Positions 1 through 18,541 of a stretch of 64,000 bases of DNA are shown here, piece by piece. This DNA comes from Candidatus Marinacidobacterium sp. (lineage in GTDB: Bacteria; Acidobacteriota; Vicinamibacteria; Marinacidobacterales; Marinacidobacteraceae), in the NCBI GenBank assembly GCA_965220965.1, contig OZ244852.1:1120001-1184000 (forward strand), read 5' to 3'. The notes beneath the pieces were generated by a model, which saw only the letters and a program-made list of their open reading frames with translations, did no database searches and was not told the origin of the DNA. The stretch's first letter is position 1; each line of letters starts with the position of its first letter. The position numbers and the translations under genes were made by a program.

Positions 1-953
1 TTTTCCTTCACCATCCGCCGCATCAGATCGGAGGCGTCCACCCGCCAATTCGCCTCGTTCGCGTGCCGGCCGGGTTTGCCGGCAAAGCGGTCTTCGTCCA
101 GCAGGCTCATGAAGAGCGAGAAGTTGGCCTCGATCCCCGAGTGGGGTGTCGCCGTCATGAGCAGCAGGTGGCGAGTCTTCTGCGAGAGAAGCCGACCGAG
201 CTGGAACCGCTTGGTGTACTTGATCTCGTCGCCGTAGTACTGGGCCGACATCTTGTGGGCCTCATCGCAGATCACCAGGTCGTAGCGGCAGTCCCGGGCC
301 CTGATCTGGCTCTGGAGCTCCTCGTTGCGGGACAGCATGTCGAGGCGGGCGATCCCGAACGGGGTCTCGAGGAACCAGTTGCCGCTGGCCGCGGTCTCGG
401 CCTTGTCTTTGGTCAGGATGTCGAACTGGAGCCGGAACTTCTGATCCAGCTCGTCCTGCCACTGCTCCACGAGCGCCCCGGGACACACCACGAGACAGCG
501 CTCCACATCCCCGCGGGCGATCAGCTCGCGGATGAGGAGGCCCGCCATGATCGTCTTCCCGGCGCCCGGGTCGTCGGCCAGCAGGAAGCGCAGCGGCTGG
601 CGCGGCAGCATCGCCTCGTAGACGGCGGTGATCTGGTGTGGCAGGGGCTCGACGTCGGACGTCTGGACCGCAAGGCGCGGGTCGTAGAGGTGCGCGAGGT
701 GGATGCGCTCCGCCTCCGCCGCGAGGCGAAACAGCGCGCCGTCGGCGTCGAACCGAAACGCCGGCTCTTCCGGCGCGACCTCGAGTCGGGACTCGTCGGC
801 GCGGTAGAGAACCCGCTCGTCGAGGCGGCCACCCTCGTCACGCGTGATCAGGGTGAGCGCGTCGTTTCCGTGCCACGTCAGGCTTTCGACGCGGACCGGC
901 GCCGACGCCAGACCGAGAACGTGAACCCCGGTCTGGAGATCTTCGAGCTTCAC
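1..953 (-). CDS. SNF2-family helicase of a DUF499/DUF1156 restriction-like system (5' part; runs off the window)
   Basis: Not in the ORF track (no stop in window). Manual translation from GTG at 953 gives MKLEDLQTG...PLPHQITAVY...RFLLADDPGAGKTIMAG (motif I)...LVICDEAHKM (DEAH)...LLLMTATPH (motif III)...DLMRRMVKE, open to position 1. Confidence 0.9.
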   Translation of the reverse strand, partial: MKLEDLQTGVHVLGLASAPVRVESLTWHGNDALTLITRDEGGRLDERVLYRADESRLEVAPEEPAFRFDADGALFRLAAEAERIHLAHLYDPRLAVQTSDVEPLPHQITAVYEAMLPRQPLRFLLADDPGAGKTIMAGLLIRELIARGDVERCLVVCPGALVEQWQDELDQKFRLQFDILTKDKAETAASGNWFLETPFGIARLDMLSRNEELQSQIRARDCRYDLVICDEAHKMSAQYYGDEIKYTKRFQLGRLLSQKTRHLLLMTATPHSGIEANFSLFMSLLDEDRFAGKPGRHANEANWRVDASDLMRRMVKE

Positions 954-969
954 GCCGGTGTTCCGGTGC

Positions 970-3900
970 TCATTCGTCCTCGAAGCCGTGTTTGGCGAAG
1001 CGGAGGGACTGGCTGTTCTCCCGGACGATCCTGACGATGTCCTCCGGGAACCCTTCGGACCGCTCGGCCGAGACCTCGAGGGTGACCTGGACATCGGCGC
1101 CGATCTGTCCGGAGAGATGAGCGATGACCTCTTCGGCGACTCTGGCCGCATCAGGTCCGATGCGCCCTGGATCGAGCGCGACCGAGCCGAAGAAGCGCCG
1201 TGACGTCGGGACCGGCGGGGGAGGTATCGGCGGATCCGGCGGGGGCACGGGCCCGGGTTCCCGATCCGCGGCCACCGCCTCCGGCCGCACCAGCACCCCC
1301 GGAGAATCGGGCGTCACCCGGTAGGCCTGCCCAGCGCTCACCCCAACGTAGCGCCCTTCTCCTTCATCGTAGGACTCGGCAAAGCCGAAGGTGTCCCGCT
1401 TCCAGCTCAGGAGCCCGAGCCCCTGCGTGATCGTCTCCGCGAGAACCTCCGGTCCCGCCAGACGGGGGCGCTCCAGGAGCTGCGCGTAGTAGTGGACCAG
1501 CTTCCGGATGGAGACGTGGTCGCCGTCCCAGAGCGGCACGCGGTCCAGATCCCGCCGCAGCAGCGTCGCGCCGTACTGCGTGATGAGGAGTTCTTCCTTC
1601 CGGGCCCGGACTGCAACGCGCTCGACGAGACCGCCCGATCCCTTGAGCCGCAGCGCCTCCCAGGTGACCGGGGCCTGCGGCCCCGTCTTCTTGGGCGCCA
1701 GCAACCAGCAGTAGGTCTCGCGCAACTGCGCCTCCACCCCCCGCTCCGCATCGTCCCGCCGCGCCTCCGCCTGCTTTCGTTGCGACGGCGCGAGATTCAG
1801 GCGGTCGGCGTCGTCAACGACCGAGCGCCACGCCAGAAGCCGACGGACCGCGCCTTCGAGATCCTGACTCCTTGTCTTGTCAGCCGCCAGGAACAGCAGG
1901 GTGTTCCGGAACTCCCGTGGCGCGTTGCCGCGCCATTCCAGGATCTTCTGCGCCTTCCCCACGGCGGGGTCATCCCCCTCTCCCTTCACGCACGGTGTAT
2001 CGGTGGAGAGGATCACGAGTCGGACGCGCGTCTCGTCGGGCACATCCCCCGATTCGCGCGGCGCTGCGTGGATCGCCGCGAAATCCCCACGCCTCTTCGC
2101 CTCCTCGCGGAGGCGTTTCCCGACCTCCTGCGCCACATCGTCGCCCCGGCATTCCTGCGCCCGATCCCGGGCGAGCTTGGTAACCGTCGGCTGGATGTCG
2201 TACCAGTAGCGGGAGCCGTCGGCGTAGAGATACGTCCCGCGTTCCGTGAGGCGGCGCAACGCATCCTCGTAGACCGCGATCCGTTGTCCCGGAATGGCGC
2301 ATCCGAGTCGGATGCGGCGGGCCTCGATCCCCTGCTGGGCCGCTTTCTGCTTCGGCGCCGACCCCAGGAATATGGTGCGGGCGACCTTCCCGGCGGCCCG
2401 CACCCGGCCGAAGTTGGCGTTCGACTTATCGATCTCGAGCGGCAGCGATCGGTCGCCATCCACGTCCTGATCGAGGATCGAGTCCCAGGGATCCTCCAGG
2501 TAACGAAGCAGCTCGGACCGCACCGGCCCCGGGTCCAGAGGGATCATGGACGGCAGGATCAGCGGGCTCTGATCGTTCGATTCCCACAGCGAGTGGATGA
2601 CCGCCGCCATCAGGCGAAGGACGCCCCGGGTGCGCTGGAAGCGGAGCCGCGAGGCCCAGTCTTCGTAAAGCCGGTCAAAGACCTCCGGGTGGATCGGGTA
2701 GGCGCTCTCGATTCGCTCGCGGTACGGGACCTCGGAGCAGGCCCTCGGAAAGTCCGCCCGGCCCTCCCGGTAATACTCGGCGAACCGCCGGGCGGTCTGG
2801 TCCCGGTGCTTGTAGTGACTGCCGGGCATGTTCTCGAACAGCCTCCGCCGGACGATCTCGAAGCCCTCCTCCGATGTCGCTGGCTTCCACGATGAGGCCA
2901 CGCGACCGAGAACATTCCGCAGCTTGTCAAGGGCCTGCCGACCCCGCACTCCGCCGACCTCCTCGTCCATGTCGTCGGAGGAGGCGTGTCCCTCGCTGGA
3001 CGCCGGGAGCGAGATCACGAGCAGGCAGTTCTTCGCCTGCTTGACCGTTTCGGTGAGGGCCTGGGCGAACGAGAACTGCGTCTCGAACGATCCACCGGGA
3101 AGGTCGGAGCGGTCCTGAAGCTGGCGGGCGTAGGCCACCCATTCGTCCACCAGGATCAGGGCCGGCCCGTAACGCTCGAGCAACTTGCCGAGCGCCGCCC
3201 CCGGGTTGGTGGCTTTTTCGTCGTCGGTCCGGATCCGGGCGAAGGCCTCCGGGCCGCCGAGTTGCCAGGCGAGTTCTCCCCAGAGCGTTCGGACGATCAC
3301 GCCGTCGGGCTTTTTCTGCGGGCTACCGGGTGAGATGCGGTTCCCGACGAGAACCACGCGCCGCACGTTCGATGGCAGTTCGGTGATCTCCGCCTTGGAA
3401 AGCAGGTTGTCCACACCGTACAGATCCGAGGCCGGCTTTCCGGAAAAGAGGTGGTAGAGCGCCAGCATCGAGTGGGTCTTGCCCCCACCAAAGTTCGTCT
3501 GGAGGTCGACCACCGGGTCTCCGCCAACCCCGGAGAGCCGGCGCACACCCCCGGTCAGCAAGGCCCGGAGTCCCGCGGTGAGATGGGTTCGCCGGAAAAA
3601 CTGGCCGGGATCGCCGTACTCGGCCCCCACGGCTCCCGCATCGTCATGGACGGCGTGGAGATCCGCCGCGAACTCGGCCTGCTGGTAGGCGCCTCCCCGA
3701 ACATCCTCGTGCGGCGTGATGACGTCCCGCCACGGCTTCAGTCCCTCGACCGGCCCCTCCGCAACGCGTTCCTTCCGCTTCCGGCGGCGATCCGCGTCAC
3801 GCGCCCGTTCCTCGTACCGGAGGCGAAGAAGCTCGTCCTTCATCGGGACCAACTGAGCGGCCTGCGAGGCCGACACCGCCGCCAGGAGTCGCTCGGCGTC

Positions 3901-4242
3901 ATCCAGCGCGCGGAAGGCCTCGTCGCCGGAAAACGTCTGCTGGTGAGCCCAACGGTTCCGCGCCGCCTTCAGAGCGTGGATCAGACTCCGCTCGGCGTTT
4001 CCGAGCGGAAACCGGAAGACCGGATCCCAGAGATCGAGCATCACCCCGAGGAGCGCGGCGGCGTCCCATCCCTCCGGGAACGACTTCGCCTGGTTCCGCG
4101 ACCGCGCCAGCGCGGAAAGCGCGTCCCGGCCGACGCGTTGCTTCTCTATTCCGCTCTGGACCTCCCGCTCGATGAAGGGGGCGAGCCCCTGCTGCAGCAG
4201 GTCGAGCGCCTTCCCGACCTGATCGCGGTTCGTCAGTGCCAC
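970..4242 (-). CDS. Swt1-like HEPN + DUF499 AAA+ ATPase (BrxC-related) of a restriction-like defence system
   Basis: 1090 aa. N-terminal HEPN Rx4H motif (RNRWAH); LKPWRDVITPHEDV..YQQAEFAADL; Walker A QTNFGGGKTHS; Walker B ILVDEW; AYPIHPEVFDRLY and FQRTRGVLRLMA typical of DUF499 proteins. Confidence 0.9.
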   Translation of the reverse strand: MALTNRDQVGKALDLLQQGLAPFIEREVQSGIEKQRVGRDALSALARSRNQAKSFPEGWDAAALLGVMLDLWDPVFRFPLGNAERSLIHALKAARNRWAHQQTFSGDEAFRALDDAERLLAAVSASQAAQLVPMKDELLRLRYEERARDADRRRKRKERVAEGPVEGLKPWRDVITPHEDVRGGAYQQAEFAADLHAVHDDAGAVGAEYGDPGQFFRRTHLTAGLRALLTGGVRRLSGVGGDPVVDLQTNFGGGKTHSMLALYHLFSGKPASDLYGVDNLLSKAEITELPSNVRRVVLVGNRISPGSPQKKPDGVIVRTLWGELAWQLGGPEAFARIRTDDEKATNPGAALGKLLERYGPALILVDEWVAYARQLQDRSDLPGGSFETQFSFAQALTETVKQAKNCLLVISLPASSEGHASSDDMDEEVGGVRGRQALDKLRNVLGRVASSWKPATSEEGFEIVRRRLFENMPGSHYKHRDQTARRFAEYYREGRADFPRACSEVPYRERIESAYPIHPEVFDRLYEDWASRLRFQRTRGVLRLMAAVIHSLWESNDQSPLILPSMIPLDPGPVRSELLRYLEDPWDSILDQDVDGDRSLPLEIDKSNANFGRVRAAGKVARTIFLGSAPKQKAAQQGIEARRIRLGCAIPGQRIAVYEDALRRLTERGTYLYADGSRYWYDIQPTVTKLARDRAQECRGDDVAQEVGKRLREEAKRRGDFAAIHAAPRESGDVPDETRVRLVILSTDTPCVKGEGDDPAVGKAQKILEWRGNAPREFRNTLLFLAADKTRSQDLEGAVRRLLAWRSVVDDADRLNLAPSQRKQAEARRDDAERGVEAQLRETYCWLLAPKKTGPQAPVTWEALRLKGSGGLVERVAVRARKEELLITQYGATLLRRDLDRVPLWDGDHVSIRKLVHYYAQLLERPRLAGPEVLAETITQGLGLLSWKRDTFGFAESYDEGEGRYVGVSAGQAYRVTPDSPGVLVRPEAVAADREPGPVPPPDPPIPPPPVPTSRRFFGSVALDPGRIGPDAARVAEEVIAHLSGQIGADVQVTLEVSAERSEGFPEDIVRIVRENSQSLRFAKHGFEDE

Positions 4243-4331
4243 AAGATTTCCTCCATCCGACGTTCGGGACGCGGATGTGAACGGATCTTATGCGGGTCGC
4301 CGGTCAGAACCTGTCACTTGCCGACTCCGCT

Positions 4332-5246
4332 TCACCGCGCGCTGCGGGGCCGCCGTGACGCCTCGAAATCACGGGAAGGATCGAGCAGAGCGGCGATCGC
4401 GCTCCCGATCCGTTCGGCCGCCGCCTCCAGATCCCGGTCGCCCACATGGGTGTAGCGCAGGGTCATCCGCGTCCCGCTGTGCCCGAGCAGGCGGGAGACG
4501 ACGGGGAGGGGCGTTCCCCGCAGCACCGCGTGGCTCGCGAACGTGTGCCTCAGATCGTGCAGGCGAACATCCTCGATGCGGGCGTCACGGCGCACCTTGC
4601 GCCAGAGGGAAAGCTCCGAAGATCGAGGCTGGGACGGATCTCGAAGGCAGGGGAAGACCCAGGGGCTCCCGTTGCGAGGCTGCCTCCGCAGGATGTTCCG
4701 GGCGGGCGCATTCAGAAGCACCGTGCGAGCGCCGGTCTTGCTGTCCGGTAGGTGAAGCATGTCGTCGTCCACGTCGCGGCAGCGCAGATGCACGAGTTCT
4801 CCCTTGCGGCAGCCGGTGAGGAGCAGAAGGCGCAGAATGTCCGCCTGTTGGCCTCCGGACCCTCGGCCCCGATGACGATCTATGGCGCGGTGCAGCCTCC
4901 GGACTTCCGTCCGTGACAGGAATCGGGTCCGGCGGACCTCCGGGTTGCGCACGACTCCGCGCGCCGGATTGCGACGGAGATGCCCGCAGGCCACGGCGTG
5001 ATTCAGGATCTGGCGCAGGATGTCGAGGGTCCGGTTGGCGCCGGCCGGGGCGCTCGCGCTGTAGCGGTCGAACCAGGCATGGACGACGCGCGGCTGGATG
5101 CGTGTCACGCGGCGTCCCCCGAACGTGGGCAGCAGTTGGGTTCGCAGCGCGCTGTCCACCCGCCGGCGGGTTGAGGGCTTCAAGCGCTGGTAGCACTCGG
5201 CCCTCCACCGACCGCTCACGAACTCCGCAAACGTTGGCGCGGTCAA
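4332..5246 (-). CDS. Tyrosine recombinase/integrase (copy 1 of tandem pair)
   Basis: Full catalytic set: LLTGCRKGE (R), DSKTG (K), RLHDLRHTFAS (HxxR), LLGH, TLRY (Tyr). No obvious arm-binding N-domain. Confidence 0.92.
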   Translation of the reverse strand: MTAPTFAEFVSGRWRAECYQRLKPSTRRRVDSALRTQLLPTFGGRRVTRIQPRVVHAWFDRYSASAPAGANRTLDILRQILNHAVACGHLRRNPARGVVRNPEVRRTRFLSRTEVRRLHRAIDRHRGRGSGGQQADILRLLLLTGCRKGELVHLRCRDVDDDMLHLPDSKTGARTVLLNAPARNILRRQPRNGSPWVFPCLRDPSQPRSSELSLWRKVRRDARIEDVRLHDLRHTFASHAVLRGTPLPVVSRLLGHSGTRMTLRYTHVGDRDLEAAAERIGSAIAALLDPSRDFEASRRPRSAR

Positions 5247-5248
5247 GC

Positions 5249-6154
5249 TCAGCCCCCGAGCGCCCGCCCGACCCGCTCGGAGGCGAGACGAGCCATGGCG
5301 TCGCCGAAGTGGAGGTAGCGGAGCGTCGTCGCCGGGTCGCGGTGGCCGAGCAGTCGGCCGATGGTCAGCACCGTCTCTCCTCGCCGCAACGCAAGGCTGG
5401 CGTAGGTGTGCCGAAGGTCGTGGAGCCGGACGTCCGGGAGGTCAGCCATCCTTCTCAGGCTCCGCCAGTGGCGCGACAGGGTCTCGGAGGGCATCGGCCC
5501 CGAACCCCGGCTCGCCGGGAAGACCCACACGCTGCGCCGAGGCAGCAGGTCCAGGACCGAGCGCGCCGCGCGCGAAAGCCAGACAGTGCGCGGGCCAACC
5601 TTGCTGTCGCTCAGGAACAGACAGTCCTCCCGGTAGTCGGACCACCGGAGCGCCCGGATCTCGCTCTGCCGGCAGCCGGTCAGCAGGAGGAGCCGGACCA
5701 GGGCGGCAGGTAAGGGGATGTTGCTCTGCTCGGCGGCGAGCGTCGCGCCGAGCCGCCGGGTCTCCTCCATCGTCAGGAAGCGTTGCCTGCCCGGTCGCCG
5801 GTAGCGCCGGATCCCGAGGCACGGGTTCGCGCCCCGTCGCCGGTAGCCGTAGATCTCAGCCTGACGAAGGATGACCGACAGGATGGGAAGCGAACGATCG
5901 GCGGCCGCGGGAGTCTTGTGCAGGGCGGAGAACCACCGCTGCACCTCGGCGCGCGTGATGGAGCGCACCGGTCGCTCCCCGAACCAGGGGAGGATCTGGT
6001 TGCGCAAGTAGATCCGGTTCACCGCCAGGGTGCTCGGCTTCCAGGTCCGGCCGTAGCGTTGGAAGACTTCGCTTGCGACGGCATGAAAGCGGTGGCCGCG
6101 CGTCGGAGAGCGGCGTGGTGAGTCGTGTGTCGGCATGTGAGCAAGGATCGCCAC
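5249..6154 (-). CDS. Tyrosine recombinase/integrase (copy 2 of tandem pair)
   Basis: LLTGCRQSE, DSKVG, RLHDLRHTYAS, LLGH, TLRY. Ends 2 bp before copy 1 starts. Start may be GTG 6154 or a later ATG. Confidence 0.92.
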   Translation of the reverse strand: MAILAHMPTHDSPRRSPTRGHRFHAVASEVFQRYGRTWKPSTLAVNRIYLRNQILPWFGERPVRSITRAEVQRWFSALHKTPAAADRSLPILSVILRQAEIYGYRRRGANPCLGIRRYRRPGRQRFLTMEETRRLGATLAAEQSNIPLPAALVRLLLLTGCRQSEIRALRWSDYREDCLFLSDSKVGPRTVWLSRAARSVLDLLPRRSVWVFPASRGSGPMPSETLSRHWRSLRRMADLPDVRLHDLRHTYASLALRRGETVLTIGRLLGHRDPATTLRYLHFGDAMARLASERVGRALGG

Positions 6155-6247
6155 AAAGGGGAGCCATTGACGGGAGGTTCGGAGTCACAGGAGGGGCGCC
6201 GCGGAACCTCTTGTCCCGCAAGTCTTTGGGGTGTCCTGGAGGCTCCG

Positions 6248-9110
6248 ATACCCTCTACCCTCGTGGCCGCGCGCAAGCTGATCGAGACCTCGCTGCCGCT
6301 GGACGCGATCAACGCTGCGGGCGCTCGCGAGAAGTCCATCCGCCACGGGCACCCTTCTACGCTGCACCTCTGGTGGGCGCGCCGGCCGCTCGCGGCGGCG
6401 CGGGCGGTCCTGTTCGCCCAGATGGTGGACGATCCGGACGAGGAGCGGTTCCCGACCGAGGAAGCGCGGCAGGCGGAGCGTGAGCGCCTGTTCGACATCC
6501 TGCGCCGGCTGGTGCTGTGGGAGAACACCACTAACGAGGAGGTGCTCGAGGAGGCGCGAGAGGAGATCCGCAAGAGCTGGCGGCGCGCGTGCGAGGACAA
6601 CCGCGACCACCCCCGCGCCGCCGAGCTCTTCGACCCGGAGCGCCTCCCCGCGTTCCATGACCCCTTCGCCGGGGGCGGCGCCATCCCGCTGGAAGCCCAG
6701 CGGCTCGGGCTCGAGGCGCACGCCAGCGACCTGAACCCGGTCGCCGTCCTGATCAACAAGGCGCTGATCGAGATCCCGCCGAAGTTCGCCGGGAAGCCGC
6801 CGGTGAACCCGGAGGCGTGCAGCCAGCCGAAGCTCTCGCAGCGGAGCTGGAAGGGAGCGACCGGCCTTGCGGAGGACATCCGCCACTATGGCCAGTGGAT
6901 GCGGGACGAGGCGGAGAAGCGGATCGGACACCTCTACCCGAAGGTCGCGGTCACAACACAGATGGTCGAGGAGCGGCCGGACCTGAAGCGCTACGCGGGT
7001 CGGGAGCTGACGGTCATCGCGTGGCTCTGGGCGCGGACGGTGCGGAGCCCGAACCCAGCGTTCCGGGACGTGGAGGTTCCGCTGGCGTCAAGCTTCGTGC
7101 TTTCGGCGAAGAAGGGGAAGGAGGCGTGGGTGGAGCCGGTCGTGGAGGGGCGCAGCTACCGCTTCCGGGTGCGGACGGGAACGCCTTCGGACGAGGCGAA
7201 GAGGGGCACAAAGTCTGGCGGGAGCGGGAGTTCCTTCCTCTGCCTGTTGTCCGGAGTCCCAATGCTCTTTCCGTATCTGCGATCCGAAGGCAAGGGGGGG
7301 CGCCTGAGGTCCCGCTTGATGGCCGTTGTCGCGGCGGGTGACCGGGAGCGCGTGTATCTGAGCCCCAACCAGGAACAGGTGCGCGCGTCCGTAGCGGCGA
7401 AGCCGGATGTGCTTCCGGAGACAGCTCTTCCGGCTAGAGCCTTGGGCTTTCGCGTTCAGGAATACGGAATGCTCCGATGGTCCGACCTCTTCACCGATCG
7501 TCAGCTCGTTGCGCTGACGACATTCTCCGATCTCGTCGGTGAGGCCATGGATCGCATCCGCCGGGATGCGTCCATAGCGGGGCTCCGGGACGACGGGATT
7601 GCACTGCGGAAGGGCGGCGTTGGCGCGCTCGCGTATGCCGAGGCGGTGGCGGTGTATCTGGCGTTCGCGCTGAGCAAACAAGCCGATTTGGGAAACAGCC
7701 TGTGTCGCTGGGAGCCCCTCGCACAGTGTCCACGTCAGCTCTTTGCACGACAGGCGATTCCGATGGTGTGGGACTTCGCCGAAGGGAATCCGTTGGGGTA
7801 CAGCTCCGGTTCCTGGACGGTTTGCGTTGAGGGGATTGCCAAGGCCTTCACTCGAGCGTTTCGCGTCGCTCGGACAGATGCCGTTGGTGTGGCCCGGCAG
7901 ATGGATGCCCAGTCGCAGGGCCTATCGCGAGGCCGGGTCGTCTCTGCGGATCCACCCTACTACGACAACATCGGCTATGCGGACCTCTCGGATTTCTTCT
8001 ATGTCTGGCTGCGCCGGTCGCTGAGGTCAGTGTGTCCCGAGCTGTTCGCCACCCTGTCAACACCCAAGGCAGACGAGCTCATCGCCACGCCGTATCGACA
8101 CGGCGGCACAGAAGAAGCCGAGACCTTTTTTCTGGAGGGTATGTCGACCTGCCTGCGTCGCATCGCCGTCGATGCACATCCGATGTTCCCGATTTCCGTC
8201 TATTACGCTCGGAAACAGAGTGAGCAGCGGGGTGCCCGGGGAAACAGGACGGGTTGGGAGACATTCCTTGAATCTGTTGTACGTGCCGGTGTTTCCGTAC
8301 ACGGTACGTGGCCCATGCGCACAGAAAACGCGAGTCGAATGACCGGCCAGGGGACGAACGCGCTCGCCTCCAGCATCGTTCTCGTCTGCCGTCGCCGTCC
8401 GGACGATGCCCCGACCGCGTCCCGCCGCGAGTTTGTAACGGCATTGCGCCGGAAACTTCCCGTCTCGTTGCGGCTTCTGCGTAGCGGCAACATTGCCCCC
8501 GTAGACCTCGCCCAGGCTGCTATCGGTCGCGGGATGGCGATATACACCCGTTACGCCCAAGTGCTTGATGCATCCGGAACTCCGGTCCCGGTGCGGGACG
8601 CTCTGGCGTTGATCGACCAGGTCCGCATTGAGGAACTCACACGAGCGGAAGGAGACTTCGACAAGGAGAGCCGCTGGGCTCTCGCCTGGTTCGACAGTCA
8701 CGGGTTCGCCGAGGGGCCCTTCGGCGAGGCGGAGACGCTCTCGACGGCCACGAACACAAGCGTGGCAACGATGGCAAGAGTCGGAATCCTCGAATCGCGG
8801 GGAGGTAGTAGCCCCAGAGGAGGCGGTAGCAGAGTTCCCGGTACGCGGGGACCCGCCCGACAGCGCCCTCCGCACAGGGTCGGGGTGCCGTCCATCACCT
8901 GATCCGGGCGCACGAGTCGGAGGGAGAGGACGGCGCTGCGACACTCGGCAAGAAGCTCGGCGCGAAGGCCGATGCCGCCCGCGAACTCTGCTACCGCCTC
9001 CACTCGGTCGCCGACCGCAAGGGAAGGCCTGCCGAAGCCCTGCGGTACAACACCTCGTCCAGAGTTGGCCGGAGATCCAGAGGCTCATGCGGACGCCAGC
9101 TTGGACGTGA
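6248..9110 (+). pseudogene. DUF1156 adenine DNA methyltransferase, copy A (no clear start codon; frameshifted C-terminal tail)
   Basis: ORF 6125-8902 carries [27 protein letters not shown], motif [10 protein letters not shown] and motif [10 protein letters not shown]. After GILESRGG (~8805) the family-like tail continues in other frames (AVHHLIRAHE..ARELCYRL..EALRYN, then LVQSWPEIQRL) to TGA at 9110. GGAGG 6238-6242 is followed by an in-frame ATA (6248); GTG 6263 is an alternative start. Confidence 0.8.
8522..8555 (+). repeat. Left arm of a perfect 34-bp inverted repeat (candidate inversion site)
   Basis: ATCGGTCGCGGGATGGCGATATACACCCGTTACG; exact reverse complement at 9303-9336. Confidence 0.9.
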
Positions 9111-9114
9111 GCCG

Positions 9115-11604
9115 TCACTGTTCGCTTCCTGATGGTGATCGCGCTGCCGGCGTGTCCTCCAGGCCGCCACAGTGCTCCGTCATCGTGGCGAGCGCCCTCA
9201 CGCTGCCAACCGAGGACGCGAGGCCACGAACCTGCGCGCCGACAACGCTGTCTCCAGTGGCTCCGGGTCCCGCTGGTTCCGGGAGACGCCGCTTCAACGG
9301 CCCGTAACGGGTGTATATCGCCATCCCGCGACCGATGGCGGCCTGCGCGAGGTCAACGGGGGCGATGTTCTCGCTCCGCAGAAGCTGTAACGCCTCCGGA
9401 AGCTCCCGGCGCAGACCCGCCAGAAACTCGCGGCGGGGCGCGGTCGGCGCATCGTCCGGACGGCGACGGCAGACGAGCACGATGCTCGATGCGAGAGCAG
9501 CGACATTCTTCTTGAGATTCCCGGTCAGTTCGGTCCGCATGGGCCAAGTGCCGGTCAGCGAGAAGCCAGACTCGATCACCGCCGCCAGGAAGGTCTCCCA
9601 CCCGGTGCTGGTTGTTCCGGCATCGACCTTCGTCTCTGACTGCTTGAAGGCGTAGTAGATCGTGACCGGGTAGTGCGGATGGGATTGCTCAGAGAGCCGG
9701 CGAAGTGCCCGGGTCATGCCCTCCACGAAGAACTGTCGGGCGGCCTCCCGACTACCGTGCCGGTACGGCGTGGCGACGAGTTCGTCGGACTTTGGTGTCG
9801 CCAGCGTGGCGAGGAGGTCAGAGAAAGCTCGTCTCAGCGAGTGGCGAAGCCAAACGTAAAAGAAATCGGAAAGGTCCGCATATCCGATGTTGTCGTAGTA
9901 GGGCGGGTCGGTCGATACGACCGAGTCCCGCAGGGACCGAATCAGCTGCGCGTCGCCTTGTGTGGCCATGCCAGCGATCGCCAGCGGAGCTGCGACGACG
10001 CACTTGATCGGAAATCTGAGTTGCCCTGCCCAGCTACCGGTGGATGAGCTGAATGGATTGGCCTCGCATGAATCCCACACCATGGGCAGCGCTTGGCGAG
10101 CGAAGACCTGTTGGACGTTTTGCCCTTTCCGGTCCCAGAAGGAGAGCGACGAGTGCCGATTGGCCAACCGACCCACTGCCAGACCGAGATACACCGCCAC
10201 CGCCTCGGCATAGGCAAGCGCGCCAGCCCCGCCCTCCCGCAGCGAAACGCCATCGTCCGGGAGCTCCGCTGCCGCCGCATTCCCGCGGATGCGATCTATC
10301 GCCTCGCCGACGAGATCGGAAAACGTCGTCAAGGCTTGGAGTTGGCGCGAGGTGAAGAGATCTCGCCACTCCACGAAGCCGTAGGGCACACAAGTGCCCC
10401 CCGTGAGCCGCGGTGGCACGAGCCCCTGTGGACGCCATGCCGGCTCTGTCAATCGTGGCTCTGATTCGTGTGGCGGCGAGGGATCGAGGTAGATACGTTC
10501 GCGCTCTCCCTCGGCTACTACAGCTAGCAGGCGGGCACCCATCCGCTTGGCCTGCCCCTCCGCCTTGATGTAGTCGCTGCGGATCGGCGAGGCCGACATC
10601 AGGCACCGGAAGTTCGCTCCTCGCGACAGCTTGGTGCCCTTCCTGGCGTCTTCCGGCGAGGCTCCCCGCCGCACCCGGAACCGGTAACTCCGTCCGTCGA
10701 TCACCGGCTCGACCCACGCCTCCTTCCCCTTCTTCGCCGAGAGCACGAAGCTCGACGCCAACGGAACCTCCACGTCCCGGAACGCCGGATTCGGGCTCCG
10801 CACCGTCCGCGCCCAGAGCCAGGCGATGACCGTCAGCTCCCGGCCCGCATAGCGCTTCAGGTCCGGCCGCTCCCCAACCATCTCCGGCGTGATCGCGACC
10901 TTCGGATACAGGTGGCCGATCCGCTTCTCCGCCTCGTCCCGCATCCACTGGCCGTAGTGGCGGATGTCCTCCGCAAGGCCGGTCGCTCCCTTCCAGCTCC
11001 GCTGCGAGAGCTTCGGCTGGCGTCGCGCCTCCGGATTCACTGGCGGCTTCCCGGCGAACTTGGGAGGGATCTCGATCAGCGCCTTGTTGATCAGGACCGC
11101 GACCGGGTTCAGATCGCTGGCGTGCGCCTCGAGCCCGAGCCGCTGGGCCTCCAGCGGGATCGCGCCTCCCCCGGCAAAGGGGTCGTGGAACGCGGGGAGA
11201 CGCTCCGGGTCGAAGAGCTCGGCGGCGCGGGGGTGGTCGCGATTTTCCTCGCAGGCGCGCCTCCAGCTCTTTCGGATCTCCGCGCGGGCCTCCTCGAGCA
11301 CCTCCTCGTTCGTGGTGTTCTCCCAAAGCACCAGCCGGCGCAGGATGTCGAACAGGCGCTCCCGCTCCGCCTGCCGCGCTTCCTCCCTCGGGAACCGCTC
11401 CTCGTCCGGATCGTCCACCATCTGGGCGAACAGGACCGCCCGCGCCGCCGCAAGCGGCCGGCGCGCCCACCAGAGGTGCAGCGTGGAAGGATGCCCGTGG
11501 CGGATGGATTTCTCCCGCGAGGCGGCGGCGTTGACCGCGTCCAGCGGCAGCGCCGCTTCGATCAGCTTGCGACGGTGACTGACAACGTTCCCTGACGGAC
11601 TCAC
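9115..11604 (-). CDS. DUF1156 adenine DNA methyltransferase, copy B (good start, lacks the conserved C-terminal tail)
   Basis: 829 aa with GGAGG RBS and GTG start; same motifs as copy A ([15 protein letters not shown]). Homology to copy A ends abruptly after [10 protein letters not shown], followed by an unrelated ~60-aa tail. Confidence 0.85.
9303..9336 (-). repeat. Right arm of the perfect 34-bp inverted repeat (candidate inversion site)
   Basis: CGTAACGGGTGTATATCGCCATCCCGCGACCGAT is the reverse complement of 8522-8555 and marks the end of A/B homology. Confidence 0.9.
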
Positions 11605-12012
11605 GATTCAGGCGCCTCCTCGGAAGCGGGCGGCGCGACAGCGTGACGTGTCACGAGCGCAGCTTCCGCAGCAGATCGAGCGTCGTGCCGCTCGTCGGCG
11701 AGCGGAACTTCAGTTGGCGGATCCGCGCGACGATGTCCCGGCGCGCTTCCTCGGTCTCCTGGTTCACCAACGGTTCCCGTTCCTCCTCCAGAGTCCGGCC
11801 GGCGCCGGTGGGAGTGGCCGGGCGACAGCCCTCGATCGGCTCCGCGTCGCGCCCGATCCCATCCGGAAGGCTGTGAGGTCGTTGTCCGCGGCCCCGCGCA
11901 TCGTCCCTGACCATGATCGCGGAGGATGGGCGGTTCAGCCCCGCGGTGTCAATACGCGCGCGCAACACGGAGCCCAGCGGAGAAACCCCCAAACCGCGGC
12001 GTGGCCGGCAGC

Positions 12013-12252
12013 TCAGGCGTCCTCCTCCATCACCCTGTCGAGCGCGTCGCGGTCGGCTATATCGACGCGCGGCGTCCCGCCGCTCCAGCTTGGCAAGGGC
12101 GGGAGAGGCTTGCGAGCGGCTGCCTGGGCTGGTTCGGACAGGACCAGTCGGACCCCTTCCTCGACGAGGCGTGAGACCGTGACGCCGCGACGCGCGGCCT
12201 CCTCGGTTGGGCGTCGCAGGAGCACCTCGTCCAGTTCGAACGTCGCCTTCAT
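12013..12252 (-). CDS. VapB/CopG-like ribbon-helix-helix antitoxin (orphan)
   Basis: 79 aa MKATFELDEVLLRR..EEAARRGVTVSRLVEEGVRLVL..LPPLPSW..VDIADRDALDRVME, typical VapB-type architecture. No PIN toxin downstream. Confidence 0.7.
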   Translation of the reverse strand: MKATFELDEVLLRRPTEEAARRGVTVSRLVEEGVRLVLSEPAQAAARKPLPPLPSWSGGTPRVDIADRDALDRVMEEDA

Positions 12253-12372
12253 GGAGCAACCCTACTCCCGCGCGAGGGAATCAGCAGATCCGGTCCCGCC
12301 CGGTCTGTCTCGGTCCGTCCCGCGCCGCAATGAAGGAAACGCTCCCCCGCTGCGTAGTCCTACAGTAGAACG

Positions 12373-12951
12373 ATGCCGCGCCCTGCCGACGCTTCCGATC
12401 CTGCGGCGCTCGATCCGGAGGAGCAGGAGTGGATCCGGCGCTGCCGGAACGGTTCTCGCCGGGCCTACGAGCCGCTGGTCCGGCGCTACGCCACGTGGGC
12501 GGAGGCCTTCGCGTTCCGGCGGGTGGGCGACCGGGAGGAGGCGCGCGATCTGGCGCAGGAGGCCTTCGTCCGGGCGTTCCACGCGATGCCGCGGTTTCGC
12601 CCGGGGCGGCCGTTCCTGCCGTGGTTCCTCGCGATCCTCGACAACCTCTGCCGGAGCGAAATCCGGAGGCGGCGTCCCCATCTTGGGCTCGACGAGGTGC
12701 GTGAGCCCTCGAACGACGGCGGGATGGGGGATGTCGCGCGGCGACTCGATGTGGCGGAGGGTCTCGCGGCTTTGACCGAGGCCCAGCGGCAGGTCGTCGT
12801 GCTGAAGGATCTCGAAGGCCGGCCTCACCGGGAGGTGGCGGCCCGGCTCGGGATCCCCGAAGGGACCGTGATGTCCCGCCTGCACTTCGCGCGGCGACGC
12901 CTGCGCGAACTGTTTTCCGGCGCCGGACGGCGGCGCGCGGGAGGCGCCTGA
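12373..12951 (+). CDS. ECF RNA polymerase sigma factor
   Basis: Region 2 DREEARDLAQEAFVRAF..FLPWFLAILDN; region 4 HREVAARLGIPEGTVMSRLHFARRRL. Confidence 0.9.
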   Translation: MPRPADASDPAALDPEEQEWIRRCRNGSRRAYEPLVRRYATWAEAFAFRRVGDREEARDLAQEAFVRAFHAMPRFRPGRPFLPWFLAILDNLCRSEIRRRRPHLGLDEVREPSNDGGMGDVARRLDVAEGLAALTEAQRQVVVLKDLEGRPHREVAARLGIPEGTVMSRLHFARRRLRELFSGAGRRRAGGA

Positions 12952-13325
12952 TGATGACGAACGAACAGAAGTCTGCTAGCCCCGCGTCCTCGGGGCGGCT
13001 TCCGGCGGATGCGCCCGGGGTCGAAGATCGGGACATCCGGCCCGCCGACTCCGACGACGCCGCACTCGACCGGTTCTGGCTGGGGGTCTACTCCCGGCTG
13101 GAGCGGGGGATCGCGTGGGTCCTCGTCTCTGCGTCGCTTGCGGCGCTCGGGATGTACGGCGCCTACCACTTCGCGACCGAGTTCCTCGCCGACGGCGAGG
13201 TTCCGATCGTGGTCCGTTTCGGGACCGCCGGGCTGCTGCTCGGTATCCTGCTTCTTCTCCTCGGCGTGGTCCGCGAACGGATCCGCGCCCTCTCCACGGA
13301 TCCGTTCCGGAGGGTCCGCCGATGA
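12951..13325 (+). CDS. Small membrane protein coupled to the ECF sigma (putative anti-sigma-like)
   Basis: Two hydrophobic helices; LDRFWLGVYSRLERGIAW; overlaps the sigma stop codon. Confidence 0.65.
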   Translation: MMTNEQKSASPASSGRLPADAPGVEDRDIRPADSDDAALDRFWLGVYSRLERGIAWVLVSASLAALGMYGAYHFATEFLADGEVPIVVRFGTAGLLLGILLLLLGVVRERIRALSTDPFRRVRR

Positions 13326-13636
13326 TCCTGAGCACAACCTCATCTGTCCCCGGACGCGAAGTCGCCTCCGTCCTGGGAGTCGCCCGGGGCAACACGATCC
13401 GCACCCGCCACGTCGGGCGCGACATCCTCGCCGGGCTGCGAACCATCGTCGGCGGCGAGGTCGTGGGATACACCAAGCTCATGGCCGAGAGCCGCGAACA
13501 GGCCATCGCCCGCATGATCGAACACGCCGAGTCCCTCGGCGCCGATGCGGTGCTGGGCATGCGGGTCAGCACCCAGATGGTCATGGCGGGGGCCTCCGAG
13601 ATCCTCGTCTACGGGACCGCGGTCAAGCTGCGGTAG
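13322..13636 (+). CDS. YbjQ/UPF0145 family protein
   Basis: From ATG 13322: MILSTTSSVPGREV..GRDILAGLRTIVGGEVVGYTKLMAESREQAIARM..LGADAVLG..VYGTAVK. Confidence 0.88.
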   Translation: MILSTTSSVPGREVASVLGVARGNTIRTRHVGRDILAGLRTIVGGEVVGYTKLMAESREQAIARMIEHAESLGADAVLGMRVSTQMVMAGASEILVYGTAVKLR

Positions 13637-13642
13637 GCCGCG

Positions 13643-14131
13643 GTGGCGGACGCCCCCGAGCGGGACGCGGGTCGGTTCTACGAGGACTTCCGCGTCGGAC
13701 AGCGCATCGTCCACCCGCTCGGGAGGACCGTCCACGCGGCGGACAACTCCTGGTTCTCGCTGCTGACCCAGAACCAGAACCCGATCCATGTGGATCACCA
13801 CTTCAGCGAGCGGACGCCCTTCGGGAAGCCGCTGGTGAACTCCTGTCTCACGCTGGCGCTTGCGACCGGACAGTCGGTGAACGACCTGACCCGGAACGTG
13901 CTGGCAAACCTCGGGTGGGAGGATGTCCGGCTCCCGGCTCCGTTCTTCGAGGGGGACACGCTCTATTCGGAGAGCGAAGTGCTCACCGCCCGGGAGTCCC
14001 ACTCCCGGCCGGAGGCGGGCGTCGTCATCGTCCGGACGACCGGGAGGAACCAGGACGGGACCGTCGTGATCTCGTTCCGGCGGACGTTCCTCGTGTGGAA
14101 GCGGGCGCACGCTCCGGCGTCGCCGGGGTAG
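13643..14131 (+). CDS. MaoC-family dehydratase
   Basis: GRFYEDFRVGQRIVH, NQNPIHVD, PFFEGDTLYSESEV hot-dog fold motifs. Confidence 0.88.
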   Translation: MADAPERDAGRFYEDFRVGQRIVHPLGRTVHAADNSWFSLLTQNQNPIHVDHHFSERTPFGKPLVNSCLTLALATGQSVNDLTRNVLANLGWEDVRLPAPFFEGDTLYSESEVLTARESHSRPEAGVVIVRTTGRNQDGTVVISFRRTFLVWKRAHAPASPG

Positions 14132-14169
14132 GGGGCGGGGCCCGGGTCCCCGGGGCGGGCTGGCGCGCC

Positions 14170-15927
14170 ATGATGTCCATCGATCCCGAGCGTTTCTGGC
14201 GGGAGGTCGCCCGGGGCGAGGACACCGCTCTCGAACTGCGCGCGGTCAGGTTGCGGGGCGAGAAAGTCACCAGCCCGCATCGGGATGGGCTGGCGGACGC
14301 CTTCGCAGCGTTCGGGAACGCGTCTGGAGGGCGTCTGGTGCTCGGCGTGCGTAACGACCGGAGCGCCCAGTCGCTCGGTCCTCCACAACTCGATGCGCTC
14401 ATGCGGCTCGTTGAGGAAGCCTGCACCGACGGCATCACGCCGCCACTGGATTACGAAGCGTTTCGGGTCCCCGCGCCGAAGCCTGGTGTCCGCGGGGTTC
14501 TCCTCGTTGACATCCCCGAGAGCGGCGAGGTTCACCGCGCCCCCAGCGGATATCTCCAATGGAAGGGCGACGCGACATGGCGGATGGATGCGCGCGCGGT
14601 GCGACGGCTGTCGCACGACCGCCGGCATGCGGACGCTTCCCCGCATGACGCCCGGGTCGTGCGCGGAACGGGGGTCGACGCCCTGGAACGGGATCTCTGG
14701 CGGCGGTATCTGAGCTCGTGGGTCGAGGACCCGCCCGAGATCTCGCTCGCGAAGCTCCGGTTCGTGAAGGCCGACTCAGCCGGAACGCTGCGGGCCACGG
14801 TCGCCGGGGTCCTGCTGGCGACGAAGGAGCCCCGGGTATGGCTGCCCGGCGCCTGGATCGAGGCGATCTGCTACCGGGGAGACCGGCCGGACGCGGAACT
14901 GCAGTTGGACGCTTCGGACATCACCGGCCCGCTCGACGAGCAGATCCGGGAGGCGACGCGTTTCGTGGTCCGCAACCGTTGGGTCGCCGCCTTCAAGGAT
15001 CCGGCGCGCACCGATGTGCCGCAGTTCAGCGAACGGGCGGTCTTCGAGGCGGTTGTCAACGCGGTCGTCCACCGCGACTACCGGGTGAGGGGATCCCATA
15101 TCCGCCTGCTCCTGTTCGAGGGCCGGCTCGAGCTCCAGTCGCCCGGCGGACTGTCGAACTGCCTGAAGCCCGAGGACCTGCGCACGAACCAGTCCGCGCG
15201 CAACGAGCTGCTGGCCTCCCGGCTGGGACAGTGCGTCGTGGGCGATGTTCCGGGCGCGGGAGGACGGCGCTACTTCATGGACCGGCGGGGCGGGGGGATC
15301 CGCGTCATCGAGGACGAGACCCGGGCGCTGGCCGGGCGACCGCCGGTCTTCGAGCTGCTCGGCGAACGGGAGCTTCGGGTCGTGCTGCCCGCCGCCCGGC
15401 CTCCGGTGGCGGGGGGCGTTGCTGCCCGCGTGACGACGCTTCGGGAGGAGGGAGGGAAACCTCTGGCGGACGCGCACGTGCTGATGCTCTGTCCCAATGG
15501 AACCTACCGGGAGGCGCGCACGAACAGCCTCGGCGAGGCCGACTTCGTCCTGCACTCGCGACTGGCGATGACGGTGCTGTGCGCGGCAGAGGGCTTTCGG
15601 GCGCACGTCGAGCGCGACCATCTCCCCGACGGTCCGCTGGAAGTGGTCATGCGGGCCGCGCCCGAGGGCGGCTCGCTGATCCTCCCTGACCAGGCCGGGA
15701 ATCTGCCCGGCATCCAGGGTCGAATGAACCCGATCCTGGACAACCTGGACCGCGCCTACCTCTATGCGCACAACGTCGCCATCAACGACGGCCAGGCCCA
15801 GCCCGTCCACTTCGCGCTGAACGAGCCGGTGCGCCTCACGGACTCACTCGGGGCGAGGGCGACGCTCTGGTTCCGGGAAATGGTGGGCGCTTCGTGCATC
15901 TTCGATTACGAATTCGATCGGGGATAA
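14170..15927 (+). CDS. AlbA_2/Schlafen-like domain + HATPase_c_4 protein with an extra beta-rich C-terminal domain
   Basis: C-terminal part of ORF 13009-15927 from ATG 14170: GEDTALELRAV..AFGNASGGRLVLGVRND; EAVVNAVVHRDY; RLELQSPGGL; ARNELLA..L; MDRRGGGIRVI. Confidence 0.8.
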   Translation: MMSIDPERFWREVARGEDTALELRAVRLRGEKVTSPHRDGLADAFAAFGNASGGRLVLGVRNDRSAQSLGPPQLDALMRLVEEACTDGITPPLDYEAFRVPAPKPGVRGVLLVDIPESGEVHRAPSGYLQWKGDATWRMDARAVRRLSHDRRHADASPHDARVVRGTGVDALERDLWRRYLSSWVEDPPEISLAKLRFVKADSAGTLRATVAGVLLATKEPRVWLPGAWIEAICYRGDRPDAELQLDASDITGPLDEQIREATRFVVRNRWVAAFKDPARTDVPQFSERAVFEAVVNAVVHRDYRVRGSHIRLLLFEGRLELQSPGGLSNCLKPEDLRTNQSARNELLASRLGQCVVGDVPGAGGRRYFMDRRGGGIRVIEDETRALAGRPPVFELLGERELRVVLPAARPPVAGGVAARVTTLREEGGKPLADAHVLMLCPNGTYREARTNSLGEADFVLHSRLAMTVLCAAEGFRAHVERDHLPDGPLEVVMRAAPEGGSLILPDQAGNLPGIQGRMNPILDNLDRAYLYAHNVAINDGQAQPVHFALNEPVRLTDSLGARATLWFREMVGASCIFDYEFDRG

Positions 15928-17227: not shown

Positions 17228-18541
17228 TCAGTGGATCGCGTCGGGACGCGTGGCCGCAAGTGGGCCCTTCGAGGCCGCTGGGACCGCGCCCCTGGCGAAC
17301 AGGACGCTCCGGTCGATGGATCCCCGCCAGGAACGGAGGATCGGGTGCTCGTCGCCTCGCACGATGTCCGACGCTCCGTCACCGTCCTTGTCGAAGCACA
17401 GCACGTGGTCGGGCTCGACCAGGCCGAGAAGGGCGGGGGAATGCGTAGTCGCGAGGATCTGCGCGTCATAGGCGGACAGGAGCGAGTCCCGGATCGCCTC
17501 CAGCGCCAGCGGATGAATCCCGTTCTGCGGCTCCTTCAGAAGGTAGATCTCCTTGTTGTCAGGGATGTAGGCAAGGAGCGTGAGCGCCAGAAGGCGCATC
17601 GTCCCGTCGGAGGCTGTCCAGGACGGAACATCCACTCCGGTTTCGTACCGAAGAGTCAGGTAGGCGCGCCGGTCCTCGGGTCGAACGACGACTTCGATGT
17701 CCCGCAGGTCTTCGAGCACCGTCCGCACATGCGACAGCCACTCGGCGTAGTCCTCGGGACGCTCCTCGCGAAGCCGCTTGACGACCCAGGGCAGGCTGGA
17801 CCCGTCGTCGGCGAAGCCGTTGACCCCGCGTTCCGGAGGGCTGGGCGCTCGCATCGCCTCGCTGTCGAGAAAGACACGCCGGATCCCGGCGTCCAGCTTC
17901 TGCTTGAGGAAGGTCGCCACCGGGAACTTCTCCGGAGACTCGGGGAGGTTCGCGAGCGTCGATCGGCGAGGACCAAATGAAATGCTCGTGACCCAGCCCT
18001 TGCCGGGCTTCGGCGTGGTCTCGACGTAGTAGCTGTCAGTCCCCTTGTCCGACTTGCTCACGACGGACCGCGTTCCGGACCCGCCTCTCCCGCGCAGGAT
18101 GGTGGCGGGGGGAGGAGCCGGGTCGGGAAAGAGGAGCCTTCGTTCCGGCGCCATCCGGCCCCGCGACGCTTTCTTGAGGACCGCCCGCTCCGACGCAATG
18201 CCAGGTCCGTCGGGACCCTCCCGAATGCCGATCTCGTAACGGAAGACGCGGAAGTCCTCGGGCAGCCGCGGTCGCAGTTCCTCCGGTACGTCCACCTCGA
18301 TGGCGAGCTCGAATCCGGACTGCCCGCCGGGCCGCCCCCAGACCAGATCCCGGAAGTTCGAAGTCCGCTTCACGACGGCGGCTTCGAGGCCGTCCCGCAC
18401 CAGATCGCCGAGGAAGGCGATGGCGTCGAAGAGGGTGCTCTTCCCGCTCGCGTTCGGGCCGATGAGGACGTGAAAGCGGTCCAGCCGGACATCCACGTGG
18501 CGAAGACACCGGTAATTCAGCGCTTGTATCCGGCGGATCAT
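17228..18541 (-). CDS. AAA_21/AbiEii-like ABC-type ATPase (defence-associated), degenerate Walker B
   Basis: MIRRIQALNYRCLRHVDV; Walker A IGPNASGKST; signature ASDGTMRLL; Walker B region YLLKEPQNGIHP; H-loop ATTHSP. Confidence 0.8.
   Translation of the reverse strand: MIRRIQALNYRCLRHVDVRLDRFHVLIGPNASGKSTLFDAIAFLGDLVRDGLEAAVVKRTSNFRDLVWGRPGGQSGFELAIEVDVPEELRPRLPEDFRVFRYEIGIREGPDGPGIASERAVLKKASRGRMAPERRLLFPDPAPPPATILRGRGGSGTRSVVSKSDKGTDSYYVETTPKPGKGWVTSISFGPRRSTLANLPESPEKFPVATFLKQKLDAGIRRVFLDSEAMRAPSPPERGVNGFADDGSSLPWVVKRLREERPEDYAEWLSHVRTVLEDLRDIEVVVRPEDRRAYLTLRYETGVDVPSWTASDGTMRLLALTLLAYIPDNKEIYLLKEPQNGIHPLALEAIRDSLLSAYDAQILATTHSPALLGLVEPDHVLCFDKDGDGASDIVRGDEHPILRSWRGSIDRSVLFARGAVPAASKGPLAATRPDAIH

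Follow-up and report, generated by a model that had tools for sequence, protein, structure and literature searches.

The window analyzed here, a 64,000-nt stretch of a Candidatus Marinacidobacterium genome (GCA_965220965.1, contig OZ244852.1; all coordinates below are positions within this window), bears what its gene content identifies as an Hma defence locus, encoding a DUF1156 methylase (HmaB), a DUF499 ATPase (HmaC) and an SNF2 helicase (HmaA). Within this locus, two hmaB copies of opposite orientation, hereafter A and B, lie next to two tyrosine recombinase genes, rec1 and rec2. The feature is real and conserved. An invertible methylase cassette is its most likely interpretation, and the sequence evidence makes it probable that we are dealing with a programmed-inversion cassette (shufflon) inside the Hma system, which is related to type-1 bacteriophage exclusion (BREX). 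According to the model that we propose, two HmaB bodies facing each other, each with its DUF1156 N-terminus, methylase core and own recognition region, would share one C-terminal tail of ∼190 residues, which is carried on a 747-nt segment bounded by two inverted copies of a short site (S). The products of rec1 and rec2 would invert the DNA between the two S copies; in the assembled state the tail would complete A, and in the flipped state it would complete B. At any time the cell would thus produce a single full-length HmaB beside a truncated one, and a flip would change the recognition region in use, hence the DNA motif that is methylated and defended.

Anatomy of the hmaB cassette

A preliminary description of this DNA had recognized two DUF1156 paralogues lying tail to tail, A on the plus and B on the minus strand, inside a DUF1156-DUF499-SNF2 gene cluster. 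This arrangement was reproduced with profile searches: Pfam DUF1156 matches both copies (E = 1.8e-28 and 4.4e-28) and the PADLOC models of HmaA, HmaB and HmaC are all matched (Table 1). On the minus strand, the order is hmaB copy B, rec2, rec1, hmaC and the start of hmaA, with copy A on the plus strand between B and rec2, so that A and B are convergent. HmaC consists of a Swt1-like HEPN domain (HEPN_Swt1) fused N-terminally to the DUF499 AAA+ ATPase, and the HmaA match rests on the 383 residues inside the window, the gene continuing past the window start with its C-terminal nuclease part outside.

Over 762 aligned residues the two HmaB copies share 71% identity; they diverge most in the middle of the protein, in agreement with the earlier remark that their central regions differ. 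Both contain the motifs FAGGG and DPPY; in body A, for which we used the HmaB domain scheme outlined in PMC12839542, the variable stretch is flanked by motif I around residue 135 and by DPPY around residue 563 (counted from GTG 6263). The near-identical N-termini described before likewise hold, forming the long outer inverted repeats listed in Table 1, and further islands of similarity punctuate the rest of the two bodies.

Decisive for our interpretation is the point at which this similarity ends. Windowed identity between A and B drops from ∼0.9 to random directly past 8555 and 9303, that is, at the inner ends of the two S copies. Within the 64 kb, the terminal 20 nt of S are present at these two places alone, as inverted copies, where chance would predict 0 occurrences, and no second S-like site was found in the N-terminal repeat at ≤3 mismatches. 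Past S, A runs on into homology to the HmaB C-terminus, whereas B enters unrelated residues and then stops. Accordingly, of the 967 positions of the PADLOC HmaB profile A matches 6–860 and B only 5–782, which upholds the earlier claim that only A carries the conserved tail. In the window this tail is split over three reading frames, the full-length homologue P0004 placing its remainder at 8890–9051 and 9054–9092 on the plus strand in two other frames. A search of the genome with the P0004 tail returned no tail match besides the 8890–9092 region; there is therefore one HmaB C-terminal tail only, and it lies on the 747 nt between the S copies.

Table 1. Features of the Hma locus and its hmaB cassette (positions within the window; identities are between the two repeat copies unless stated otherwise).
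Feature	Position	Strand	Description
Candidate invertible segment	8556..9302	+	747 nt; sole HmaB tail (coding to ∼9110, joined to A) and ∼190-nt spacer
S site, left	8522..8555	+	34-nt exact inverted repeat ending at codons ...AIYTRY
S site, right	9303..9336	-	Reverse complement of 8522–8555
Pre-S repeat	8360–8555 / 9303–9498		86%; ends in the 34-nt exact block
N-terminal inverted repeat	6272–7213 (in A) / 10630–11571 (in B)	+ / -	942 nt, 91%; exact runs of 64 and 67 nt
Internal island 1	7484–7659 (A) / 10187–10362 (B)		81%
Internal island 2	7927–8103 (A, spans DPPY) / 9755–9931 (B)		77%
HmaB copy A	open reading frame 6125–8902, likely start GTG 6263	+	Pfam DUF1156, PADLOC HmaB E = 0
HmaB copy B	11604–9115	-	Pfam DUF1156, PADLOC HmaB E = 0
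HmaB body A	6263..8555	+	DUF1156 domain, motif I FAGGG, variable nested recognition region, motif IV DPPY, core to S site
HmaB body B	9303..11604	-	GTG 11604 with GAGGAGG box; own recognition region; past S unrelated sequence, stop at 9115
rec1, tyrosine recombinase	4332..5246	-	Pfam Phage_integrase (PF00589) E = 9e-20
rec2, tyrosine recombinase	5249..6154	-	42% identical to rec1
rec2 / copy A divergent intergenic region	6155..6262	.	108 nt; junction [HmaB <-][-> rec2 rec1] kept in related loci
hmaC	970..4242	-	PADLOC HmaC E = 0; Pfam PF04465, PF18731
hmaA, 5' part (SNF2 helicase)	3..1151	-	PADLOC HmaA E = 2.2e-137; Pfam SNF2-rel_dom, ResIII
Two small open reading frames	12885–12262 and 12259–11651	-	Co-directional, just upstream of copy B; status uncertain

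The two adjoining tyrosine recombinases are intact, as had been stated, both retaining all six catalytic residues (in rec1 R147, K170, H230, R233, H256 and Y265), which are invariant among eight sequences comprising rec1, rec2 and three orthologues of each. Their closest solved relatives by sequence are XerC-like and XerD proteins, the best for rec1 being the XerC-like 4a8e; no solved structure matching HmaB by sequence was found. Like pairs of the XerC/XerD type, rec1 and rec2 are two adjacent, catalytically intact paralogues; in contrast to these, the pair is tied to an HmaB cassette or, elsewhere, to a multicopy unit of 2.4 kb, and no sign emerged of action as a heterotetramer or on a dif-like site.

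Read-derived contigs and inversion in silico

To compare the assembly with read-derived sequence, Logan contigs of sequencing run X1 were set against window positions 3500–12500. Of the sampled words, 0.92 are present in X1; this run may represent the source sample itself and is thus not independent of the assembly. Seven long pieces show 0 differences from the window, whereas one 803-nt contig of the same depth (∼100), covering 8526–9332, carries 21 substitutions and six single-base indels. All 27 differences fall between 8809 and 9278, inside the S-bounded 747-nt segment, where the tail appears frameshifted. After these changes had been applied by script, A read from GTG 6263 became an uninterrupted HmaB of 955 residues, the last 240–250 residues of which give one local alignment each to three full-length homologues (147/243, 151/241 and 155/250 identical), and B ended 34 residues past ...AIYTRY. 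The frame breaks in the tail, being absent from the X1 contig, are best read as consensus errors of the assembly.

The erroneous stretch 8804–8841 is similar, at 31/38 nt, to a different part of the segment when that part is reverse-complemented, with the resemblance sitting ∼36 nt off the position expected in a flipped molecule; suggestively, a polisher given both orientations could have made this error. A 38-nt inverted repeat (8804–8841 / 8979–9016) that had been considered as a recombination site was rejected, its left arm being missing from the read-derived contig and most likely a consensus artefact. The sole indirect sign of mixed orientations is that assembly and X1 contigs disagree only within the S-bounded segment. 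In practical terms, invertible segments may leave pseudogene-like consensus errors in long-read assemblies, as here.

Using the X1 segment, the assembled orientation encodes 801 residues at the B locus and 955 at the A locus. Inversion of 8556–9302 in silico exchanges this relation, yielding a 958-residue open reading frame at the B locus and 798 residues at the A locus; because the two S copies are identical, the frame is preserved. This S-to-S event, which is the well-supported one, corresponds to the inner flip of the preliminary description, which had envisaged nested inversions giving an OFF state as assembled, an ON state with the specificity of B after the inner flip and an ON state with that of A after an outer flip. 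No joints diagnostic of either orientation were obtained from the Logan contigs of X1 and of a second run, X2, which break at every repeat (k = 31 cannot resolve a 34-nt repeat). X2 covers the flanks only, at a depth of 2–3, and nothing across the cassette, and of a Hi-C run (X3), the one set of raw reads covered, sampled at about one in 100 reads, 0 reads were placed on the locus.

Regarding the state captured in the window, it is more likely that A is complete and B truncated, since A is intact in the reads, the 108-nt junction with rec2 is conserved and both N-termini are kept as coding sequence. Against this state stands the observation, already made in the preliminary description, that only B has a good start: a GAGGAGG box lies ∼8 nt upstream of its GTG and the gene follows two co-directional small open reading frames, whereas the sole plausible start of A, GTG 6263, which is also the start implied by the recorded 879-aa window protein P0003, has no close Shine-Dalgarno box. 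The intergenic region between A and rec2 is presumed to hold the promoters of A and of rec2-rec1-hmaC-hmaA; a scan of it for sigma-70-like promoters returned 0 sites, an uninformative outcome in a GC-rich genome. Taken together, the 955-residue A and the position of its 5' end in the conserved divergent rec2 junction render the assembled OFF state doubtful.

Related loci and the evolution of the two copies

Comparison of syntenic loci in related genomes, which the preliminary description had suggested, was carried out. In a same-phylum sample of 401 genomes, 71 have an HmaB-like match (a tally that includes two genomes flagged unpublished, G049 and G024, on which no other result rests), and in three of these 71 (G148, G186 and G196) two oppositely oriented HmaB copies flank orthologues of both recombinases at 60–69% identity. 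A recombinase-alignment scan restricted to one genome per species retained 76 loci. Those with a rec1 at least 62% identical, 12 in number, all lie in Hma loci, and 11 of the 12 have two inverted HmaB copies. Within the window's own family, six of 27 genomes carry rec1 orthologues, and G413 has three such loci.

After merging of duplicates (L037 = G148; L043 = G196; L107 = L122 = G415), 19 distinct loci were compared, namely the window, L034, 12 of the 76 scan loci and L123–L127. Two inverted HmaB copies together with rec1 and rec2 orthologues are present in 17 of the 19, L124 being cut by a contig end, and the orthologues of rec1 and rec2 are direct neighbours in every related Hma locus. Ten of the 19 (the window, L034, L036, L037, L040, L041, L046, L107, L108 and L127) combine one full-length copy with one that ends at P0004 residues 772–779; L044 and L124 show a truncated copy of the same type with the partner cut off, and L042 and L038 are cut by contig ends. 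The breakpoint is thus shared: in a DNA alignment of the junctions from the window, G148 and G186, the point at which full and truncated copies diverge is the same to within 3 nt, and two of the 119 best HmaB homologues (P0022 and P0070) enter unrelated sequence directly after ...YTRY. In every locus the S copies are inverted and never direct, and we accordingly rejected a mobile element inserting at S. The loci are assigned to Acidobacteriota (Vicinamibacteria, Thermoanaerobaculia, Terriglobia and Bryobacterales), Gemmatimonadota/Longimicrobiales and one alphaproteobacterium.

With respect to topology, most loci are arranged head to head around the recombinases, the window and L046 being tail to tail. 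In loci of the G148 type, hmaC is entered from the full copy and hmaA straight from the truncated one, which must therefore be transcribed. Between G186 and G196, two members of one genus, the arrangement differs: hmaC and the adjacent full-length hmaB are collinear and the recombinase block is inverted, and the tail-linked body of G186 is 79% identical to the distal copy of G196 versus 74.5% to the collinear one. By sequence comparison, a single S-to-S inversion of the body-recombinase-body block would explain this difference.

Several further loci deserve mention in their own right. L038, a 4805-nt short-read contig, holds rec2-rec1 between two inverted HmaB 5' parts, both cut at residue 460 by the contig ends; an assembler halting at an internal inverted repeat would be expected to leave such a contig. 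The three HmaB-recombinase cassettes of G413 (L123, L124 and L125) are separate, and both copies of L125 are full-length. Matches to the HmaB tail only (P0004 residues 811–961) occur in short open frames at G367:C1:890161-890595, G399:C2:2551751-2552056 and G172:C1:672306-672755; no full HmaB body was found beside them at E ≤ 1e-20 in the same search, and they may represent split or orphan tails.

Pairwise identities over 27 HmaB copies, with regions defined by P0004 residues, revealed how the parts of the two bodies have evolved. The N-terminal region (10–300) has a mean identity of 0.90 within genomes and 0.78 between genomes, and the stretch just before S (705–772) 0.92 and 0.80, whereas the middle (320–560) stands at 0.52 in both comparisons, with a range of 0.47–0.63 over 12 within-genome pairs and a between-genome maximum of 0.82. 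The nearest relative is the partner in the same genome for 15 of 25 copies in the N-terminal region and for two of 24 in the middle, and clustering of the 24 middle regions at 60% identity separates 16 groups. Homogenized repeats next to maintained divergent cassettes are what shufflons show, and by this analogy the pattern may be taken as a shufflon signature. The region in which A and B differ coincides with the columns that vary family-wide (1.48 versus 0.54 bits, n = 758) and appears to match, as a variable stretch between motifs I and IV, the nested insert for target recognition that PMC12839542 reports in these methylases. By the scheme of that paper, the two bodies would differ in their recognition domain, and the movable tail would hold part of a helix-turn-helix-like region.

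Over the 314 codons of the N-terminal repeat, 75 differ between A and B, 51 of them synonymously and 24 with a change of residue. Judged by these codons, both N-terminal regions are under purifying selection and kept as coding sequence. The predominance of synonymous differences argues that both HmaB loci are translated, and purifying selection on both N-termini fits a tail that visits both loci.

Alternative explanations and relation to known systems

A number of observations weigh against a switching cassette, and many of them would suit a different account, which we consider quite improbable: the HmaB paralogues would stem from an inverted duplication, or from capture on a mobile element with two recombinases, one of them now being a truncated pseudogene, and occasional gene conversion would keep the repeats alike, without programmed switching today in this genome. 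The flipped orientation was seen in no read, given the X1 and X2 contigs and the X3 sample. The N-terminal repeats of the window are only 91% identical and their synonymous divergence (dS) lies well above zero, so that homogenization is not recent at this locus, and the S repeat is short. In L036 (5240–6619) and L046 (12283–14196), transposase-like open reading frames of 459 and 637 aa, sitting near the boundary of the N-terminal repeat and the variable region, split the truncated HmaB, which indicates that partner copies can decay by disruption with insertion sequences. The architecture is also not uniform, as L039 has a single HmaB copy, L043 and L125 have two tails, and the HmaB proteins of L123 and L126 end elsewhere, at 882 and 829.

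Furthermore, rec2-rec1 pairs without Hma make up 64 of the 76 loci of the recombinase scan, mostly in alphaproteobacteria and often with several per genome. There they form a unit of ∼2.4 kb, the copies of which are 81–86% identical within unrelated flanks, and which by its sequence resembles a small mobile element with genes for two tyrosine recombinases. These multicopy units relate the window pair to a mobile unit, and the recombinases could serve mobility rather than switching. In the window's own genus, L121 (G402) carries rec1 and rec2 orthologues 71% and 67% identical to those of the window with no HmaB within 10 kb; no large inverted repeats were found near this pair. In Hma-free units such as L049, L050 and L054 (one genome), L051 and L061, the gap between rec2 and rec1 is ∼290 nt versus 3–17 nt.

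Against an origin in duplication or capture without present-day switching speak, in contrast, the common truncation point in at least 10 loci from several phyla, the exclusively inverted S copies where an integration product would leave direct ones, and the conservation of both intact recombinases beside the cassette. Orientation moreover differs between congeners, the truncated B keeps an intact 767-residue body under purifying selection, and the disagreement between assembly and reads is confined to the S-bounded segment.

The nested three-state scheme of the preliminary description, in which only the B locus is expressed, the assembled state is OFF because B lacks the tail, the inner flip gives ON-B and an outer flip across the 942-nt repeat gives ON-A, appears unlikely. 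It draws on the better ribosome-binding site of B, on the co-direction of B with the two upstream open reading frames and with rec2-rec1-hmaC-hmaA, on the homogenization of the N-terminal repeats within genomes, and on the precedent of BREX PglX in L. rhamnosus, for which PMC9881135 documents nested inversions whose one-inversion intermediates are unstable and lack the C-terminus. With the read-derived segment, however, A is a complete 955-aa gene, the ratio of synonymous to residue-changing codons is that expected if both copies are translated, and the truncated copy of G148-type loci, leading straight into hmaA, must be transcribed. The outer flip is without specific support: the S sequence is not in the N-terminal repeat and its core occurs only twice in the window, the difference between G186 and G196 is explained by an S-to-S inversion, and no genome comparison needs an N-to-N flip. 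An outer flip across the N-terminal repeats might occur, for example by homologous recombination, but nothing requires it. Of the earlier switching model, a recombinase-associated invertible methylase cassette thus finds strong backing in the comparative evidence, whereas the OFF state and the outer flip do not.

It is also conceivable, though very unlikely, that inversion occurs for ON/OFF control or regulation of the whole system, for instance of transcription into hmaC/hmaA or the recombinases, rather than for specificity. In G148-type loci one body is directed outward into hmaC and the other into hmaA, which means that a flip would rearrange transcription units, and the methylase activity of HmaB is unproven. 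A pure ON/OFF switch is nevertheless hard to reconcile with recognition regions that always differ between the copies of one genome, to the extent given above, while reaching identities of up to 0.82 between genomes.

With these alternatives weighed, we return to the inversion of a shared tail as the preferred explanation. Type I hsdS shufflons, such as pneumococcal SpnIII, are the familiar case, in which recombinase-mediated inversion between repeats in paralogous specificity genes leads to alternative methylation. There, a separate S subunit is shuffled by half-domains, whereas in the window the recognition region is part of the methylase and a whole body would be exchanged against a shared tail. 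A published listing of programmed inversions comprises PglX, DrmMI, Cj0031-like enzymes and HsdS, with inversions of BREX type 1 PglX (L. rhamnosus, B. casei), of DrmMI from the DISARM (defence island system associated with restriction-modification) system and of Cj0031-like type IIG enzymes (Milman et al. 2023, PMC9881135). The window cassette shares with PglX and DrmMI an adenine methylase from a defence system resembling restriction-modification, accompanied by an inverted paralogue, partial or whole, and by a recombinase next to it, as well as, on the proposed model, the swapping of a variable recognition part with constant parts kept, and intermediates without a C-terminus exist in those systems too (PMC9881135). 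It differs from them in belonging to the DUF1156/HmaB family with its nested recognition insert, in having two paired recombinases instead of one, and in that each body has its own N-terminus and start and the single tail (or the whole body-recombinase-body block) would change partner. By analogy, we rate the cassette as a new variant of the known methylase shufflons, which would join BREX PglX, DISARM DrmMI and HsdS.

Hma was described by Payne et al. 2021 (PMC8565338) and is alternatively named the type-1 BREX-related system (PMC12839542); it was recorded in 26 phyla by the former and 2446 taxa by the latter. It ranks among the most widespread defence systems resembling restriction-modification, and its methylase is functionally uncharacterized. 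As in canonical Hma, the window locus has three core genes and an HmaC with the common HEPN fusion, whereas canonical Hma has a single hmaB co-oriented with hmaA and hmaC and the window has two inverted copies. A survey of genes embedded in Hma kept only loci with each hma gene present once and on one strand (preprint 10.1101/2024.01.29.577857), so that loci like that of the window would have been discarded from it. Experimental work on protection against phage is described for HmaA of Halomonas only (PMC11232893), and in the same host, phage T4 from cells overexpressing HmaB behaved as wild type (PMC11232893); together with the undemonstrated DNA methylation by HmaB, this result counts against a switch of methylation specificity. 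Integrases near Hma have been taken as signs of mobility (PMC11232893) and may instead be invertases.

In agreement with the preliminary description, whose author was not aware of inversion having been described for the DUF499/DUF1156 system, a full-text literature search returned no paper in which Hma, DUF1156 or DUF499 is described as subject to inversion or phase variation, with the proviso that supplements of preprints might list such loci. DUF1156 and DUF499 were not found in the text of PMC9881135 or in one supplementary file, and its other supplements might list such loci; the words 'recombinase', 'integrase', 'inversion' and 'shufflon' are absent from the text of PMC12839542. Tentatively, and with rather less confidence than for the window itself, we suggest that Hma in Acidobacteriota, Gemmatimonadota and some Alphaproteobacteria may contain a conserved, undescribed 'tail-swap' shufflon, in which a dedicated recombinase pair, related to the mobile 2.4-kb unit, would flip the DNA between two short sites within hmaB and thereby give one of two bodies, which differ in their recognition domains, the sole DNA-binding tail. 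Switching of self-mark and defence would then be heritable, reversible and free of an OFF state, and in the head-to-head versions the truncated copy would drive hmaA. If true, the two-allele switch would offer a handle on the target of HmaB, on the need for its C-terminal tail and on the discrimination of self from phage, and would broaden the known range of recombinase-driven epigenetic switching by a new methylase family and by phyla that have been little studied.

Finally, we inspected the genes around the locus. The two small minus-strand open reading frames upstream of B encode 202 and 207 aa; codon-position GC favours these frames, and neither has a family match in Pfam or PADLOC. A 375-aa plus-strand open reading frame in the same place (11648–12775) was judged spurious by codon-position GC and has no family matches. 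Further along, a 972-aa Schlafen AlbA_2 / HATPase_c_4 protein (13009–15927, plus strand) gives weak PADLOC matches to Argonaute-associated models, and a 437-aa AAA_21 ATPase (17228–18541, minus strand) matches the HEC-01A and mad3 models, so the neighbourhood of the Hma locus looks like a defence island.

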